A stretch of 64,000 nucleotides of DNA from Glaucostegus cemiculus (Eukaryota), in assembly GCA_976551045.1 (NCBI GenBank), contig CDPCPM010000275.1, positions 3,534,001-3,598,000 of the forward strand, written 5' to 3'. Shown in pieces: positions 2,410 to 62,451 of the stretch; the stretch's first letter is position 1, and each line of letters starts with the position of its first letter. The notes below the pieces were generated by a model. It searched no databases. It saw only the letters and a list, made by a program, of their open reading frames with translations, and had not been told where the DNA came from. The position numbers and the translations under genes were made by a program.

Positions 2410-4260
2410 ATCCTAGTACACCTCTCCATAAATAAAGTGAAGTTACCTGATGCCTTAGCAGGTTTAAAGGGAATACATCCCTGGGGCTGGGTGAGATTTA
2501 TCCCCAACTGCAATAGGAGGCAAGGGAAGGGATTGCCAGAGTTCTGAAATGGATTTTTAATTCTTCACTGGCATTGTGAAGTACCAGATAACTGGAGGAT
2601 GGCAAATTTAGTCCCCCTTTTCGAGAAGGCAGCAGGGAAAAATCTGATAATTACAGACCTGTGAGTCTAACATCAGTAGGAGGGAAGTTATTGGGAAAAA
2701 AGAATCTGAGTGTGGAATTAATGATCACTTGAAAAGGCAGGGACTCATCAAAGGTCGTCATTATGGCTTTGTCAAGGGCAGATCTTGTCAGACTTAAGAG
2801 GTAATAAAGTGTATTGATGAGGACAGTGCAGTAAATTGCTTAACATAGACTTCATTAAGGCCTTTGACAAAGCCCCACATTGAAGACTGGTCCAAATGGA
2901 TAGAGCCCATGAGAGCCAAGGTAACTTGATAAATTGTATCCAAAATTAGTGATTGGAGGAAGAGGGTGTGGTAGAGGGTTGTTTTCATGAACGGATGCCT
3001 TTGACTAGTGGCATTCCGCAAGGATCAGTGCTGGGACCTTTGTTTATAATATATTTGAATGAGTGCTGGGACCCCTGTTTGTAATATACTTGAATGAGTG
3101 GTGTGTAGGAGGCATGATCAGTAAAGTTTGCAGATGACATGAAGATTGGTGGAATTGTTGACTGTGTGGAGGGTGGTCATAGGCCACTGAGTGTTGGTGA
3201 AATGGGCTGAGAAATGGCAGATGGAGTTTAATGCAAATTAATCTGACATAATGCATTTTGGGAGTACTAATGAGGCTAGGACATACACAATGATTATTAA
3301 GGTCCTATGGTCTATTGAGGAACAGAAGGACCTTGGTGTTCAAGAAAAAGATCCTTGAATGTGGCAGTGCAGCTAGGTAAAGTGGTTAAGAAGACCGTGG
3401 AACACTGCCCTTCACTGGGCTTCAAATACAAGAGTAGAGAGGCTATGCACCAACTTCATTAAAACATTGGTAAATCCTCTGCTGGATTACTGCATGTCAC
3501 TCTGGTCACCACACCATAGGAAAAATGTGATTGTTCTGGAGAGGGTGCAGAGGAGATTCATCAGGATGTTACCAAGGTTGGACCATTTCAGTTATGAGGA
3601 GTGACTGGAGAGACTAGGTCTGTTTTCCCTGGAGTAGAGGAGGTTAAGAGGGTATGTGATTGAGGTACATAAAACTATGAGGGCTATTGATAGGGTATAC
3701 TTGCAAGTAACTTTTCCCTGTATCAGGGGTAGATAAAACTAGAGGACATAGATTTAGGGTAATAAGTAAGAGATAGGGATCTAAGAAGAACTCCCAGAGG
3801 GAGTGGAGGAAGTAGAATCACTGTCAGCATTTAAGAAGTGTCTATATGAGCACTTGAATCATCTCGGTATGGAAGGCTATAGGCCAAACGCTGGGTGGTG
3901 GGATTAATACGGATGAGTTCCCACTGGTTGGTGTGTTCGAGGTACAAAGGTCCAGAGGGAAAATTATAGATTCATGCGCAAGTCCCTGAATTTCCATTAG
4001 GTTTAATGTGTAGCTGTCTAGCACACAGGTATATGGTAGAATGCAATTTAGGACATAGATTTAGGGTAATAAGTAAGAGATAGGGATCTAAGAAGAACTT
4101 TTTACACCCAGAGAGTGACAAATACCTGGAAGGCACTACCAGAGGGAGTGGAGGAAGTAGAGTCACTGTCAGCATTTAAGAAGAGTCTATATGAGCACTT
4201 GAATCATCTCGGTATGGAAGGCTATAGGCCAAACGCTGGGTGGTGGGATTAATACGGATG
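2410..4260 (+). mobile_element. Decayed CR1 LINE ORF2 (RT) to 3' end
   Basis: Frameshifted RT motifs: NYRPVSLTSVGGK (~2650), TSGIPQGSVLGP (~3004), ISKVFADDMKIGG-like (~3118), LERVQRRFIRMLP (~3536). Confidence 0.9.
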
Positions 4261-29175: not shown

Positions 29176-30824
29176 ATAGAGTCATACAGTAATTCAGCAC
29201 AGATACAGACTCTTCAGCCCACCGAGTCCATGCCGACCTTGGTGCCCATCCAGTTAGTCCCAATTTCCTGCATTCGGCACGTATCCCTCCAAGCCCCACC
29301 CCTCCATGTACCTATCCAAGTGCTTCTTAACTGATACTTTTGTACCTGCCTCAGCCACTTCCTCTGGCAGCTCGTTCCATATACTCACCACCATCTGTGT
29401 GAAAAAGTTGCCCCTCAAGTCCCTTTTAAATCTTTCCCTTTTTACTCCACTACCCTGGGGAAAGGACTGTTACCATCCACCTTATCTTTGCCTCTCATAA
29501 TTTTAAACATTTCTCTGAGGTCACCCCTCATTCTCCTACCTTCCAAGGAATAAAGACTTAGCCTGGTCAACCTCTCCCTATAACTCAGGGCCTCTAGTCC
29601 TGGCAACATCCTATGCACTCTTTCCAGTTTAACCATGTTTTTCCTATAATGGGGACACAGTACTCCAAGTGCAACCTCACCAATGACTTATGCAACTGCA
29701 ACATAATGTCCCAACTCCTGTACTTAATGCCCTGACTGATGAAGGCCAGTGTGCTAAACACCTTTTTCACCACCCTATCTATCTGTGATGCCACTTTCAA
29801 CAAACTATGCACTTGTACTCCAAGATCCCTCTGTTCCATTACACTCCCTAGTGCCCTACCATTCGTAGTATAGGTCCTATGCTTGTTTGATTTGTCAAAA
29901 TGCATCTCCTCACAATTATCTGTATTGAAATCCATTTGCCACTCCTTGGCCCACCTTCCTGACTGATCAAGATCCCCCTGTAATCTACAACAACCTTCTT
30001 CACTATCAGCAACACCTCCTAATTTTGTGTCTTCTGCAAACTTACTGATCATGCCTTGTGCGTTCGTATCTAAATTATTTATAAAAATGACAAGGGTCCC
30101 AACACCAACTCCTGCGACACACTGCTAGTCACTAGCCTCCATTCTGAGAAACAACCTTCAACCACCACCCTCTGCTTCCTACCACCGAGCCAATTTTGAA
30201 TCCATCAAACTATCTCTCCCTAGATTTCATGGGACCTTACCTTCCAGACCAGCCTACCATGTGGGACTATGTCTAAGGCCTTGCTAAAGTCCGAATAGAC
30301 AACATCCACTACCCTACCCTCATGTACCTTTTTGGTTACCACTTCAAAAAAAAACTCTAAACAGTTTGTCAAATGTGACTTTCCGAGCACAAAGCAAAGC
30401 TGATTCCTCCTAATCAGACTCTGTCCATCCAAATGCTGGTAGATCCTGTCCCTCAGAATTCCCTCCAGTAACTTCCCCACTACTAATGTCAGTTTGACTG
30501 GCCTGTACTTCCCTGGCTTGTCCTTGCTACCCTTCTTAAACAATGGATTAACATTAGCCATCTTTCAGTCTTCAGGATCTTCACCAGTGGCTAATGATGA
30601 AGCAAATATTTCTGCAGGGGCCTTTGCAGTTTCTCCTCTAGCCTCCCACAAAGTCCACGGACACATTTGGTCAAGTCCTGGGGATTTATCCACCTTAATA
30701 TGCTGTAAGACTGCAAATACCTCCTCCCTGGTAATATGAATGTTCTCCAAAACATCACCACTTGTTTCCCTTCTCTCTTAAGCAACCATGATTTTCTCCT
30801 TAGTAAACACTGAGGAAAAATATT
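29176..30824 (-). mobile_element. 5'-truncated CR1 LINE (frameshifted RT)
   Basis: ORFs 30565-30750, 30220-30561, 29594-30052 and 29442-29636 give consecutive RT segments (DKSPGLD, YRPVKLT, SDFSKALD, KFAEDTKLGG). Confidence 0.95.
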
Positions 30825-48779: not shown

Positions 48780-49432
48780 AAATGTGTAGAGGATCCTAAT
48801 GCATAATTCATAAAAACTTGATATGTATGTACAGCACATAGTTAGGAAAGTTAACAAAAGTTATTGTTTTTCATTATAGATACTGAATACAAAAATAGGT
48901 AATGCTTCCAAAATATAGGGCATTGGTGAGACCCTAGCTGGAATATTGTGTATATTATTGAATATTGTGTATATTATTGGTCCTTCTTTTCAAGAAAATA
49001 TGTTTATGTGTTGGAAACAGTTCACAGACTAATAGCTGGAATAAGTAGTTTGTCTTTTGAGGCTCTTATCTGATGGAGTTTAGCAGAATGAGAGGGGACT
49101 TGATTGAAACATACAAGATCCTGAGAGGTCTTGACAGGAGGCATCTGACATGTATGGGTTTTTTTTTCTTGGGAGAGAATAAGAGGACACACATTTAAAA
49201 CAGATGAATTTTTATCTTTAAGAGGGCCATGAGTGTTTGGAACTCACTTCCTCAAAAAGCACTGGAAGCTGGGTCTTTGAATAGTTTTGAGGCTGAGGTA
49301 GATAGATAATTGATAAGGTAGTGAAAGATTAGTGTGGATGGACAAGAATGCAGAGTTCAGGCTACAGTCAGACTAGTTATAATCTTATAAAATTAAAGAG
49401 CAGGCTTGAAGGGGAAAATAGCTTACTCATAC
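48780..49432 (+). mobile_element. Old CR1 3' fragment
   Basis: YRALVRP*LEYCV (~48914) and RMRGDLIETYKILRGLDR (~49085). Internal 19-20-nt tandem repeat at 48940-48979. Confidence 0.8.
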
Positions 49433-49494
49433 GTTTCTTCATATTTTTCTCTCAAACGGTCAAAGTTAGATGCCTGGGCATCATGTTGTATTGT

Positions 49495-49605
49495 CTTGAG
49501 CTGGTTCACATTTTCCTACATTACAGTTCAAAAGTTCTTCATTGGCTATGATGTACTTGGAGCTACTTTGAGCTTGTGAATGATATTATAGTAAATGCAA
49601 GTTCC
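49495..49605 (+). mobile_element. DeuSINE 3' fragment
   Basis: tttcctacattacag...ttcaaaagttcttcattggctat...aaatgcaag is antisense-related to 34200-34280. Confidence 0.55.
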
Positions 49606-49817
49606 CTACCTGTCAATCCATTCTTGAGGCCCCCACAGTAAGTCTGTTTTAAAAACAAATGCATTTGTTTAATTTAAGCATTTTAATTGGAGTGAAGTTC
49701 TCAGCAATACAGTTTTCTCTGAAAGGTATGTTAAAGTAGAAATGCGTTTAAATATAACTTCCTACTAATCAGTATCCAGGAATATTTAACAAAAATGTTA
49801 TTTCAGGTTGAATATTA

Positions 49818-51668
49818 AGAACATAGAACATAGAACAATACAGCACAGAACAGGCCCTTCGGCCCATCAAGCTGTGCCATCCTACAAACATCTCCCAAAC
49901 TAACTCTTTCCACCCTCATATCCTACTATTCCACATTCTTCCATGTGCTTATCTAACAATCTCTTAAACCTGTCCAACGTATCTGCCTCCACTACCACCC
50001 CAGGCAGTGCATTCCATGCACCAACCACTCTCTGGGTGAAAAACTTCCCTCTGACATCTCCCCTATACTTTCCACCTATTATCTTAAAGGCATGCCCTCT
50101 CGTCTTGAGCATCTGCGCTCTGGGAAAGAGGCGCTGACTATTAACTCTATCTATTCCTCTCAATATCTTAAACACCTCTATCAAGTCCCCTCTCATCCTC
50201 CTCCTCTCTAATGAGTAGAGCCCTAGCACCTTAAGCCTCTCTTTATATTCCATACCCTCCAATCCAGGCATCATCCTGGTAAAACGCCTCTGCACCCTCT
50301 CCAACGCCTCCACATCCTTCCTATAATGCGGCGACCAAAACTGAACACAATATTCCAAGTGCGGCCTAACTAGAGTTTTGTAAAGCAGCATCATCACCTC
50401 TCTGCTCTTGAACTCAATCCCTTTATTTATAAAAGCCAACATCCCATAAGCCTTCTTAACAGCCCTATCCACCTGCGAGGCAACTTTGAGTGAACTGTGG
50501 ATATGAACCCCCAGATCCCTCTGCTCCTCTACACTGCCAAGAACCTTACCATTTACCTTATACTCTGTCCTGGAGTTTGTCCTCCCAAAGTGCACCACCT
50601 CACACTTCTCCAGATTAAACTCCATCTGCCACCTGTCAGCCCATTTCTGCATCCTATCAATATCCCCCTGTAAGCTCCTACAGTCCTCCACACTATCTAC
50701 CACACCACCGATCTTGGTGTCATCTGCAAACTTACCAACCCATCCCTCCACTCCTTCATCCAAATCATCTATGAATATAACAAAGAGTAGAGGCCCCAGA
50801 ACCGATCCCTGCGGGACTCCACTAGTCACAGCCCTCCAATCCGAGGGCACTCCCTCCACCATAACCTTCTGCCTTCTACAGGAAAGCCAATTTCTTATCC
50901 ACACAGCCAACCTCCCCTGGATACCTCGACCTCTGACCTTCTGAAGAAGCCTGCCATGAGGAACCTTATCGAACGCCTTACTAAAATCCATATACACTAC
51001 ATCCACCGCCCTGCCTTCATCAAGCTTCCTCGTCACCTCCTCAAAGAACTCTATCAGGCTCGTGAGGCAAGATCTTCCCTTCACAAAGCCATGCTGACTG
51101 TCCCTAATCAGTCCATGACTCTCCAAGTGCTCATAGATCCTGTCCCTCAAAATCCTTTCCAACAGCTTACCTACCACAGACGTGAGGCTCACCGGTCTGT
51201 AATTTCCCGGACTATCTCTACTGCCCTTCTTAAACAAGGGAACAACATCCGCTACTCGCCAATCCTCCGGCACCATCCCCGTGGACAACGAGGACTCAAA
51301 GATCCTCACCAGCGGATCAACAATCTCCTCCCTCGCCTCCCGAAGCAGCCTGGGGAATATTCCATCGGGCCCCGGAGACTTATCAGTCTTGATACTACTT
51401 AACAATTTCATCACCTCCTCCCTCTCTATAGCTACATACTCAAGAATATTACCCTTGTCAGCACTCACTGTCACATCATCAAGGCCCCTCTCCTTGGTGA
51501 ATACAGAGGAGAAGTATTCATTAAGTACCTCCCCTACCTCTGCCGCCTCCAGGCACATCCTCCCACCTTTGTCCTTAATAGGCCCTACCTTTACCCTAGT
51601 CATCCTTCTGCCCTTCACATAAGAGAAAAAAGCCTTGGGATTTTCCTTAACCCTACGAGCCAACATCT
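49818..51668 (-). mobile_element. Young CR1 LINE 3' part: uninterrupted 588-codon ORF2 segment (full RT), 3' UTR and (TGTTCTA)n tail
   Basis: ORF 49900-51666 has KSPGPDG, NYRPVSLTS, QHGF, YMDFSKAFDKV, GVPQGSVLGP and FADD with no stops. Tail agaacatagaacatagaac at 49818. Confidence 0.97.
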
Positions 51669-52323
51669 ATAGAGGAGCAGATTGGCAGGCAGTGCTTGGA
51701 CAGAAGCAAAGATAATAGAGTTGTAATAATGGGTGATTTCAACTTCCCGAATATAGACTGGGACATGCTCAGTGCCAGAGGTTTGGATGGGAATGAGTTT
51801 GTTAAGTGTGTCCAGGATGGATTTCTGGAGCAGTATGTTGACAAACCGACTAGAGGGAATGCTGTGTTGGATCTGGTTTTAGGAAATGAACCGGGACAGG
51901 TGAGAGATCTACTAGTGGGTGAGCCTCTGGGAGACAGTGATCATTCCTCGATAAGCTTTAGAATTGTCATGGACAGGCATAAGTGCAGGGAGCATAGGAA
52001 GATATTCAATTGGGGTAGGGCAGACTATGAGGCTATAAGGAAAGAGCTTGGGAGTGTAAATTGGGAAGTCCTTTTTGAGGGGATGTGTACTGTAGAGATG
52101 TGGACGTTGTTCAGGGATGTTTTACAGGATGTTGGGGACAGATATGTTCCGGCAAGACGGAGGAAGAATGGAATAGTGAAGGAACCATGGGTGACAAGAG
52201 AGGTAGAAAGACTGGTTAGGAGGAAGAAGGAGGCTTACGTAAGGTGTAAGTGGCAAGGCTCTGATGTGGCCCGTGAGGAGTATAGTATAGTGAGAAGGGA
52301 ACTTAAGAAAGAGCTGAGGAGAG
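51669..52323 (+). mobile_element. Inverted 5' segment of the same CR1 (endonuclease C-terminal half and linker)
   Basis: Open frame IEEQIGRQCLDRSKDNRVVIMGDFNFPNIDW...PTRGNAVLDLVL...GDSDH...ELKKELRR. In ORF2 this lies immediately upstream of LARRVKENPKAF, but here it is on the opposite strand. Confidence 0.95.
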
Positions 52324-52414
52324 TACTTGCCTTGCCCATTACAAAGAGTGCATATTTCCTCTTTGGACATCACCTGACTTTGCCCTTGCCTCGCTTACTA
52401 CTACTGCAATTCTG

Positions 52415-52592
52415 AATAAGTAATGTTGGAAATCTTAAATTAAAAACAGAATATGTCAGAAACATTCAACAGGGCTGATGGTATCTGTGGAAAAAGAAAT
52501 AGTTCTTGGGTCTAGGACCCTTCATCAGATTTGCTCTAATGAAGGGCCCTGTATTTGAAACGTTAATTGTTTCTCTTTCCACAGAGGCACTG
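52415..52592. mobile_element. Foldback element copy with the best-preserved hammerhead half-cores
   Basis: tctgtggaaaaagaaa / tttctctttccacaga arms. Centre cccttcatcaga-tttgc-tctaatgaaggg. Confidence 0.7.
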
Positions 52593-56022: not shown

Positions 56023-57993
56023 AAGGAACATGGAACAGTTACAGGTACAGGGCCTTCAACCCACAATGTCAATGCTGACCATGATACCAAGTTTAACTAA
56101 TCCCATCTGCTTGCACGTGGTCTATGTCCTTCCATTTCCTGTCTGTTCCTGTGACTGTCTAAATGCCTGTTAAATATTGCTATCATATCTGCTTCCACCA
56201 CTTCCCCTGGCAGCATGTTCCAGGCACCTACCACACCCTGTGTAAAGAAATACACTTGCCATGTAAATCTCCTTCAAACTTACCCCCTCTCACCTTAAAG
56301 CAATGCCTTCTAGTCTATGACATTTTCAGCCTGTGAAAATGACACTCACTCTCTACCTTGTCTATGCTTCTCATAATTTTATATACTTCTATCAGATCAC
56401 CCCTCAGCCTCCATTGCTCCAGAGAAGATGATCCAAGTTTGTCCAGCCTCCCCTTATAGCTAATACTCTCTGCTCCTAAAGGTCTTGCCGTTTAATACAT
56501 ACCTTCCTCTAACATTTGATCCCAGAAAACAACAACTTAAACTTGTCCAAATTAAACTTCATCTGCCATTTCTCTGCCCACATTTCTAACTGATCTACAT
56601 GCTGCTGAAGACTTTGACAACCTTGCTCACTATCCACCACTTCACCAATTTTTGTGTTGTCTGTAAACTTACTAATCAGCCTACCTGCATTTTCATCCAA
56701 TATATATGAACATCACAAATAACACAGTTGCAGCACTGATCCTTGTGGAATACCACTGGCTACAGACTTAGTCAGGATAACACCCCTCCATCACTACCCT
56801 CTGCCTTCTAAGGCCAAGTCAATTTTGAATCCAAGTGACCAAGTCTCCATGGAACCATGTGCCCTAATCTTCTGGTTCAGCCTACCATGAGGGAACTTGT
56901 CGAAAGCTTTACTCAAGTCCTTGTAAACAACATCCACTGCCCTACCCTCATCAATCACCTTCATCACCTCCACAAAAGCTCAATCGAGTTTGTGAAACAT
57001 GACCTCCCATTGCTGACTATCCCTAATATATCTATGCTTTTCCAGTTGTGAGTGGATCCTATCCCTAAGAATCTTCTCCAATAATTTACCTACCTCTGAT
57101 ATAAGTCTCACCAGTCTATGCTTACCTGGTTTGTCTTTACTGTTCTTTTTAAACAGAGGAACAAAATTGACTATTCTCCAGTCCTCTGGGACCTCTCCTG
57201 TGGCTAAAGAGGATTCAAAGATCTTGGTCAAGGCCCCAGCAATCTCCTTTCTTGCCTCTCTCAATAACCTGGGATAGATTCCATCAGGTCTTGAGACATC
57301 CACCTTAATATTCTTCAAGCAACTCAACACCACCACCTTTTTGATGTCAACATGCTCTAGAATATCAGCATACCTCTCCCTGATCACACTATCCTCTACG
57401 TCTTTCTCCCTGGTGAATACCGATGCAAAGTACCTTGCCCATTTCTCTGGCTCCAGGCATAAATTTCCTCGTTTGCTCTAGAGAAGTCCTACCCTCTCCC
57501 TAGTTACCCTCTTGCTTTTAATGTACGTGTAAAATGCTTGGGGATTCTGTTCAATCCTACTTGCCAAGATCATTTCCTGACCCGTTGTAGCCCTCCTGAT
57601 TCCCTGTTTGAGTTCTCTCCTGCTTCCTTTTATATTACTCAAATGCACTGTCCGATTTCAGTTTCCTAAATTTTACCTGCTGTATGTTTTCTTTATCTTT
57701 TTGACTAAATATTGGCAACATCTCCCATCATCCAAGATTTCCAAGCCTTGCGTCCCTTTCTTTCTTCCTGACAGGAACATGTTGGTCCTGAATTCTGACC
57801 AAACTGGCTTTTAAGCAACTTGCACATGTTGGGTGGGGCCCTACCCAATAACAGCTGCTCCCAATCTACTCTCCCCAGCTTCTGCCTAATACTTTTGTAT
57901 TTCGCCTTTCCTAATTTAGCACTTTTCCCTGTGGTCTTATCCTTATTCAGAGCTATCTGATTGCACCTTTCTTATTCCTGAGCTCTACCTATG
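56023..57993 (-). mobile_element. CR1 LINE with internal deletions
   Basis: ORFs 56980-57387 (PDGIYPRLLREARKEIAGALTKIFESSLATGEVPEDWR) and 56509-56700 (ISKFTDNTKIG). Confidence 0.93.
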
Positions 57994-61188: not shown

Positions 61189-62451
61189 TAGAACCATAGA
61201 ACAATACAGCACAGTACAGGCCCTTCGGCCCACCATGTTGTGCTGACCTATAAAACCACACCTAAGACTATCTAACCCCTTCCTCCCACATATCCCCCTA
61301 TTTTAAATTCCTCCATATGCTTATCTAACAACCTCCTGAACTTGACCAATGTACCTGCCTCCACCACCACCCAAGGCAGTGCATTCCATGCACCAACCAC
61401 TCTCTGGGTGAAAAACCTCCCTCTGACATCTCCCCTGAACTTCCTATCCATAACCTTAAAGCCATGCCCCCTCGTCTTGCGCATCGGTGCCCTGGAAAAG
61501 AGGCGCTGGCTGTCTACTATATATATTCCTCTCAATATTTTATACACATCTATCAAGTCTCCCCTCATCCTCCTCCTCTCCAACAAGTAAAGCCCTAGCG
61601 CCTTAAGCCTCTCCTCATATTCCATACTCTCTAATCCAGGCAGCATCCTGGTAAATCTCCTCTGCACCCTCTCCAACACCTTCACATCCTTCCTATAATG
61701 CTGCGACCAGAAATGAACACAGTACTCTAAGTGCGGCCTAACTAGAGTTTTGTAAAGCCGCATCATCACTTCGAGTCTCTTAAACTCGATCCCACGACTT
61801 CTGAATGCTAACATCCCATAGGGCTTCTTAACTGCCCTATCCACTTGCAAGGCCACTTTCAGTGAAGTGTGGATATGTACCCCCAGATTCCTCTGCTCCT
61901 CTACACTGCCCAGTACCTTGCCATTTACCTTGTACTCCACCCTGGGGTTTGTCCTTCCAAAGTGTACCACCTCACACTTCTTCTGTAAGTTCTGACAACC
62001 CTCCACACTATCCACCACACTGCTGATCTTAGTGTCATCCGCAAACTTATTAACCCAGCCTTCCACCCCCTCATCTAAGTCATCTATAAATATAACAAAA
62101 AGTAGATGTCCCAGAACCGATCCCTGCGGGACACCACTAGTCACAGCCCTCCAATCCAAGGGTACTCCCTCCACCACAACCCTCTGCTTTCTACAGGCAA
62201 GCCAATTCCTAATCCACACAGCCAAGCTTCCCTGAATCCCTTGACCTCTGACCTTCTGAAGAAGCCTACCATGAGGAACCTTATCAAACACCTTACTAAA
62301 ATCCATGTAGCCCTCATCCACCGCACTGCCCTCATCCATCTCCATCGTCACCTCCTCAAAGAACTCTATCAGGCTTGTGAGGCAAGACCTTCCCATCACA
62401 AAGCCATGCTGGCTGTCCCTAATCAGACCATTATTCTCTAGGTGTTCATAG
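61189..62451 (-). mobile_element. Young 5'-truncated CR1, close relative of 49818-51668
   Basis: ORF 61272-62399 is collinear with the 588-aa ORF and has an in-frame deletion after FADD. Tail tagaaccatagaacaatacagc. Confidence 0.96.

Follow-up and report, generated by a model that had tools for sequence, protein, structure and literature searches.

The twin-priming model for 5′-inverted copies of mammalian L1 is said to have come from Ostertag and Kazazian in 2001. Among young human and chimpanzee L1s, 30.9% (639 of 2,068) are 5′-inverted; of the inverted copies, 28 of 605 (4.6%) lack microhomology at the 5′ junction and ~95% have it, according to the part of the article available (PMC2912911). 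A second study, as far as its available text goes, gives target-site duplications (TSDs) of 10–20 bp for 5′-inverted human L1s and treats 5′ inversion in human cells as nearly L1-specific and tied to overhangs of 10–20 nt (PMC4245944). Its human-cell assays yielded inversions only for L1, save one Nimb-2_DR insert, and none for ZfL2-1, an element with 5-bp TSDs, for which the authors suggest that a 5-nt overhang may be too short (PMC4245944). In birds and turtles the predominant LINE is CR1 (available portion of PMC4316615). No 5′-inverted CR1 is reported in the main texts of the literature that we searched, which included the accessible parts of PMC5389967, PMC4476161, 10.1101/2025.02.02.635956, PMC3747384, and PMC4255032; Ichiyanagi and Okada 2008 and Kojima and Okada 2009 may bear on non-L1 inversions.

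The window, by which we mean the whole stretch of 64,000 nucleotides analysed, contains a CR1-type LINE in two arms of opposite orientation. The part from the RT to the tail lies on the minus strand (49818–51668), and the 656 bp that belong upstream of it lie on the plus strand (51668–52323). The locus has the following parts:

49473–49817, no strand: left flank, next to the 3′ end of the element; a contig of run X1 passes from it into the tail.
49818–49839, minus strand: 3′ microsatellite tail of 7-nt units, from the sequence and the tails of the nearest relatives; the true end may be 49815 or 49813.
49840–49899, minus strand: 3′ UTR with a hairpin predicted by RNA folding.
49900–51668, minus strand: non-inverted arm, the part of ORF2 that starts shortly ahead of the RT domain and runs to the stop; 588 aa free of stops, 99.84% identical to copy C137/L061.
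51668, no strand: inversion junction, one T common to both arms, from comparison with intact copies.
51668–52323, plus strand: inverted arm of 656 bp, C-terminal part of the ORF2 endonuclease and linker; 99.70% identical to the same copy, L061.
52324–52445, no strand: right flank, pre-existing host DNA; organism D aligns from exactly 52324, a probable empty site.

The stop-free frame of 588 aa in the minus arm matches Pfam RVT_1 (E 1.7e-33), and the plus arm, also without stops, encodes the C-terminal part of Exo_endo_phos and a linker. Intact copies have 18 bp between the end of the plus-arm sequence and the beginning of the minus arm, so that 18 bp were lost at the turn; the gap is 20 bp in one intact copy, and another copy has an additional internal deletion. 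On the RNA, the inverted arm ends these 18 bp before the non-inverted arm begins. The missing bases fall inside seven codons that read ARRGHEK in an intact copy, and T51668 is compatible with both arms, i.e., a microhomology of 1 bp. The original prediction had described two stop-free halves at these coordinates with about seven codons missing between them, and the frames, the domain matches, the comparison with intact copies, and the mapping of the breakpoints all agree with it. The fold of 49815–49905 reaches −29.3 kcal/mol (z −3.1), and none of 200 shuffles is equally stable. Of the 40 matches scored out of 476 candidates in a search of the same genome (2.85 Gb in 1,511 contigs), 39 were plus-arm copies from elsewhere at 98–100% identity, and the window copy alone matched across the turn. 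Its flanks contain no upstream remnant of the element and no other piece of the young family, and there is no flank DNA between its arms.

The family to which this copy belongs is large. A 30-base marker from the 3′ end has 12,095 exact matches in the genome, and its reversed control has none. A near-complete copy of 4.55 kb (L153) has an open ORF2 of 1033 aa and an ORF1 with an esterase domain (Lipase_GDSL_2, E 2.7e-17); this ORF1 also matches PDB 4c1b, “ORF1-encoded protein” (E 2e-34), which we take to be the ZfL2-1 esterase. An esterase domain in ORF1 is reportedly a feature of the CR1 clade, described by Kapitonov and Jurka in 2003; L153 has it, but it does not separate CR1 from L2. Two other features of the clade are present, an ORF2 with APE endonuclease and RT (Exo_endo_phos, RVT_1) and a 3′ UTR hairpin with a microsatellite tail, the latter as given in the available text of PMC4316615. 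The best named matches of the RT are mostly bird and turtle proteins (41–53% identity) and two shark proteins at 72% (Scyliorhinus and Chiloscyllium), none of them labelled CR1; the latter two agree with the shark-like host proposed earlier. We provisionally file the family as CR1-type on its RT relatives, domains, and 3′ UTR, rather than on a tree against labelled references.

Several other observations concern this family. Full-length copies have a 5′ UTR made of tandem monomers of ~250 bp (L376 6616–6894; also L134, L171, L173, L187, and L190). Copies of the subfamily are long for CR1, with a median of ~1.6 kb and at least 1 kb in 56 of 85 (sample L088–L195). Two proteins 71–76% identical to the window RT (P0006 and P0025) are filed under bacterial names and are probably host contamination. 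The window also contains older CR1-related fragments, 64–87% identical to the young family where measured (2649–3666, 29483–30554, 56520–57597, 61189–62451, and 48926–49240), and a 35-bp tandem duplication at 3027–3100. Elsewhere, the genome has a tandem array (L377–L378, G000:C360:555000–575000) with a unit of 4.63 kb, consisting of a 2.5-kb truncated CR1 and ~2.1 kb of a ~189-bp satellite; the units are ~96–97% alike.

Both arms of the window copy have L061 as their nearest copy, the differences being 2 in 656 bp and 3 in 1,829 bp (5 in 2,485 bp), and rare variants are in common. The identities to one arm and to the other have a Spearman correlation of 0.89 over the 139 loci that hold both regions (not de-duplicated). 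With the same nearest copy and the rare variants in common, the objection that the halves belong to two subfamilies fails. Judged from these comparisons, the arms come from one source, strictly one source and not one molecule, and their near-identity to L061 means that the insertion is very recent. The earlier view of a single young insertion from a recently active family stands.

The support for the junctions differs between the two ends. Short-read contigs of runs X1 and X2 cross the tail junction, and one X1 contig (49473–49844) reaches 27 bases into the element; both inversion junctions are neither shown nor contradicted by these contigs (52325–52414 is uncovered, and depth in unique regions is ~4–5). 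On the right side, two runs of organism D (X6 record 19 and X8 record 27) each contain one contig (849 or 868 bases) matching 52324–52445 with 10 differences in 122 and continuing for 721–739 letters past 52324 in sequence unlike CR1. Depth in these runs is in the tens of thousands for CR1-like sequence and 22–32 for the flank contig, and because of this difference the unbroken contig indicates that there is no CR1 at that place. It is probably the empty site, and presumably corresponds to the left flank as well; the inversion does not extend into the flank. Among the 40 scored candidates, no paralog covers the first 74 bases of the right flank. The turn might in principle be an artefact of assembly, since no contig was seen across either inversion junction. 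We consider this very improbable, because contiguity of the assembly is high, organism D shows the same starting base for the flank, and inverted copies recur, once in five diverged segmental duplicates. In runs X3 and X5, labelled as other organisms, we also observed low-depth pieces 97–100% identical to the young element, with the flanks absent; these may come from contamination or mixed samples.

The match with organism D stops exactly at 52324, which argues against microhomology at the outer junction, with the limits that D may differ at that base (it is 8% divergent) or that target bases may have been lost; the window copy probably has no outer microhomology. Target duplications beyond 2–3 bp do not fit; the original prediction had likewise seen no TSD. 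The 3′ end is ambiguous by 3–5 bases (49813–49818) because the nearest copy has the same 5 bases after the tail repeat. A 2-bp TA duplication is possible; a 2-bp CT or a 3-bp duplication doubling as outer microhomology is disfavoured by the end of the D alignment at 52324. For the 172 young copies in which both ends were resolved, the best match between flanks is 4–6 bp in 63, against 34 expected from shuffles, at least 7 bp in 8, and at least 10 bp in 3. The family makes short target duplications or none. Young copies nested in young copies of the same family (L300/L429 and L369), with duplications of ~4 bp or none, can be used to read exact target sites.

Three other insertions have the same arrangement:

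L376 (C11, young subfamily): ~2.46 kb inverted, extending into the second monomer of the 5′ UTR; 7 bases missing at the turn, no exact shared base.
L413/L456 (C28, ~91% identical to the reference): inverted arm of ~540 bp; no bases lost, arms overlapping by 1 base.
L375 (C12, ~83% identical): inverted arm of 136 bp; ~139 bases lost, microhomology of 3–4 bp.

The event in L375 is present in five segmental duplicates (97–100% alike) and counts once. Like the window copy, these three have no flank DNA between the arms and no upstream remnant of the element. A TSD of 10–20 bp was found in 0 of the 4 events, and the best fits, of 2–4 bp, are equally frequent in shuffled pairs. Microhomology at the turn (1 bp in the window copy and 0, 1, and 3–4 bp in the others) is not above chance with four events.

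These three, independent insertions, come from a sample of 246 distinct copies, the window copy not counted, in which the 5′ end was resolved (1.2%; CI 0.25–3.5%, for n = 247); within the young subfamily the count is 1 of ~209. The copies were drawn in two groups. The first is anchored at the 3′ end and unbiased for length: it uses the first 100 listed places of the 3′ marker, with long stretches for 83 of 85 queued places and segmental duplicates merged, and 0 of its 85 distinct resolved 5′ ends are inverted. The second uses the listed places of seven mid-element motifs, is biased toward long copies, and has 3 inversions among 161 distinct 5′ ends (162 if the inverted arm of L376 is itself counted). 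Left out of the rate were 52 copies from loci selected by similarity, the window copy included; 75 locus-level chains with the 5′ end beyond the fetched DNA (not de-duplicated, many repeating longer fetches); and 9 loci running off inside the 5′ UTR. The rate is a sample estimate, in which inverted arms shorter than ~22–25 bp escape detection. Candidates were picked by genomic adjacency and similar identity, not by the distance between the arms on the RNA. Opposite-strand neighbours of unlike age were set aside as nested insertions (L014, L053, L091/L119, L185, L193, L247, L260, L264, L280, L340, L347, and L426). The window copy is one of a rare but recurrent class of 5′-inverted insertions: it is real, very young, and dead, with no function shown.

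We favour, with moderate confidence, a rare and homology-poor form of twin priming, in which both DNA ends at the cut primed reverse transcription of one RNA. The bottom-strand nick would prime at the 3′ tail and copy 1.85 kb, the non-inverted arm (49900–51668) being part of this putative first-strand TPRT product. During or after first-strand synthesis, the top-strand end would prime inside ORF2, 18 nt ahead of the point where the first copy stops, and copy 656 nt, and the two cDNAs would be joined via the one shared base. As the family leaves overhangs of only 0–6 nt, the top-strand end would seldom prime, and would do so with few or no base pairs. The single source of the two arms, both nearest to L061, is consistent with twin priming. 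So are the recurrence of inversions at ~1% of copies, the flank of organism D from exactly 52324 without CR1, and the close meeting of the arms on the RNA in all four events with no flank DNA between them. The distances are 0, 7, 18, and ~139 nt, for which two independent breakpoints have a chance of 0.011 (at most 20 nt) and 0.078 (at most 140 nt). A snap-back of the cDNA, as described in the available text of PMC11371274, is excluded because the whole inverted arm derives from sequence upstream of the other arm. Against twin priming stand the absence of an L1-type 10–20-bp TSD in all four events, the probable lack of outer microhomology in the window copy, the restriction of the three sampled events to the mid-anchored, longer copies, and the lack of inversions for the short-TSD element ZfL2-1 in cell assays.

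The same geometry, again with a single source, would arise if first-strand cDNA spanning to the far end of the inverted arm were nicked near the turn and the loose single-stranded piece ligated in flipped orientation, host end joining connecting the 5′ end of the piece to the 3′-OH of the top strand and making a second priming unnecessary. Such a break predicts near-zero loss at the turn, as found in three of the four events (0, 7, and 18 nt), and a low rate with no need for outer microhomology or a long overhang; it fits the missing outer homology as well as twin priming does. The ~139 nt lost in one event and the head-to-head pair described below, which points to priming at both ends, speak against it. 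Described for LINEs in none of the papers that we searched, it is a proposal of this analysis; it is the main rival of twin priming, and on balance an unlikely one.

An ordinary 5′-truncated copy whose front was inverted later by double-strand-break repair is a further alternative, to which we give little chance. With at least 12,095 copies some rearrangements are expected, internal deletions do exist in the sample (e.g., L258, L289, and L451), and junction homologies of 0–4 bp fit end joining. However, one break would have to fall exactly at the 5′ end of the element in all four events, with no captured flank and no upstream remnant, and the window copy, only 0.2% from its nearest relative, leaves little time for it.

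Separate copies of the family do occur in pairs. At L131 (195–6855; G000:C1:8288033–8295083) two tailed young-family copies, 97.7% alike, lie head to head with 8 bases between them, a filler similar to the neighbouring element sequence. The two ends of a single cut may have been primed there on two RNAs, and the pair suggests an ability of this CR1-type family to prime from both ends of a break. At L077 (3542–9125; G000:C604) a truncated copy starts 3 bases past the tail of another, 97.8% alike, which may be a template jump or an insertion into a tail. By analogy, a head-to-head junction of two RNAs or two insertions of the same source, of which the second was primed internally or truncated at its 3′ end, could account for the window copy. 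The two pairs make this conceivable, but the inverted arm has no tail and independent molecules are unlikely to meet within 0–18 nt in three of four cases (0.011 each), and we regard it as improbable.

In summary, twin priming remains our preferred reading, and the original prediction that an elasmobranch CR1 lineage can twin-prime holds in part. That inversions happen repeatedly is supported by the three more found in 246 copies, and the geometry is that of the twin-priming signature. Of the L1 hallmarks that go with this signature, a 10–20-bp TSD was sought and not found in the four events, and microhomology at the 5′ junction is probably lacking in the window copy; twin priming proper as the cause is weakened by a rate ~25-fold below that of human L1 and by the identical geometry expected from a broken and flipped cDNA. 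More tentatively, and with somewhat less than even confidence, we propose that priming from both ends is a general ability of LINE ORF2 and not an L1 speciality. This shark-type CR1 would then use blunt or 0–6-nt ends with little or no pairing and produce 5′-inverted copies (from one RNA) and head-to-head dimers (from two RNAs) at ~1% each, and the length of the overhang would set the rate of twin priming and not its possibility. The overhang model finds a natural test in this young CR1 family, which has over 12,000 copies, TSDs that are mostly short or missing, and an inversion rate of ~1%. By extrapolation, the family should hold some tens to a few hundred inverted events, whose junctions could separate twin priming from flipping driven by repair.

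Compared with the known systems, as these are described in the available parts of the sources, the family resembles amniote CR1 in its heavy 5′ truncation, its 3′ UTR hairpin and microsatellite, and, in intact relatives, the ORF1 esterase and the ORF2 endonuclease and RT (PMC4316615); it differs in the tail units of 7 or 8 nt, the ~250-bp monomers of the 5′ UTR, and the shark-like host. The snap-back of R2 cDNA also places antisense element sequence at the 5′ junction, but it recopies sequence already in the cDNA (PMC11371274), whereas the arms here overlap by at most 1–4 bases. With mammalian L1 the inverted copies have in common an inverted arm wholly upstream of the tailed arm, few bases lost or doubled where the arms meet, and a probable single source RNA (PMC2912911, PMC4245944); the microhomology at that point is short as in L1, though not above chance in the four events here. 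They differ from L1 in having no 10–20-bp TSD, probably no outer microhomology in the window copy, and a rate of ~1% against 30.9%, i.e., ~25-fold lower (Fisher p 2e-32, with different ascertainment). The zebrafish elements ZfL2-1 and Nimb-2_DR are, like the family here, non-L1 LINEs with shorter TSDs, and Nimb-2_DR puts a rare non-L1 inversion on record (PMC4245944). Whereas ZfL2-1 gave none in those assays (PMC4245944), four germline events are found here in the genome, made by an element with short TSDs or blunt ends.
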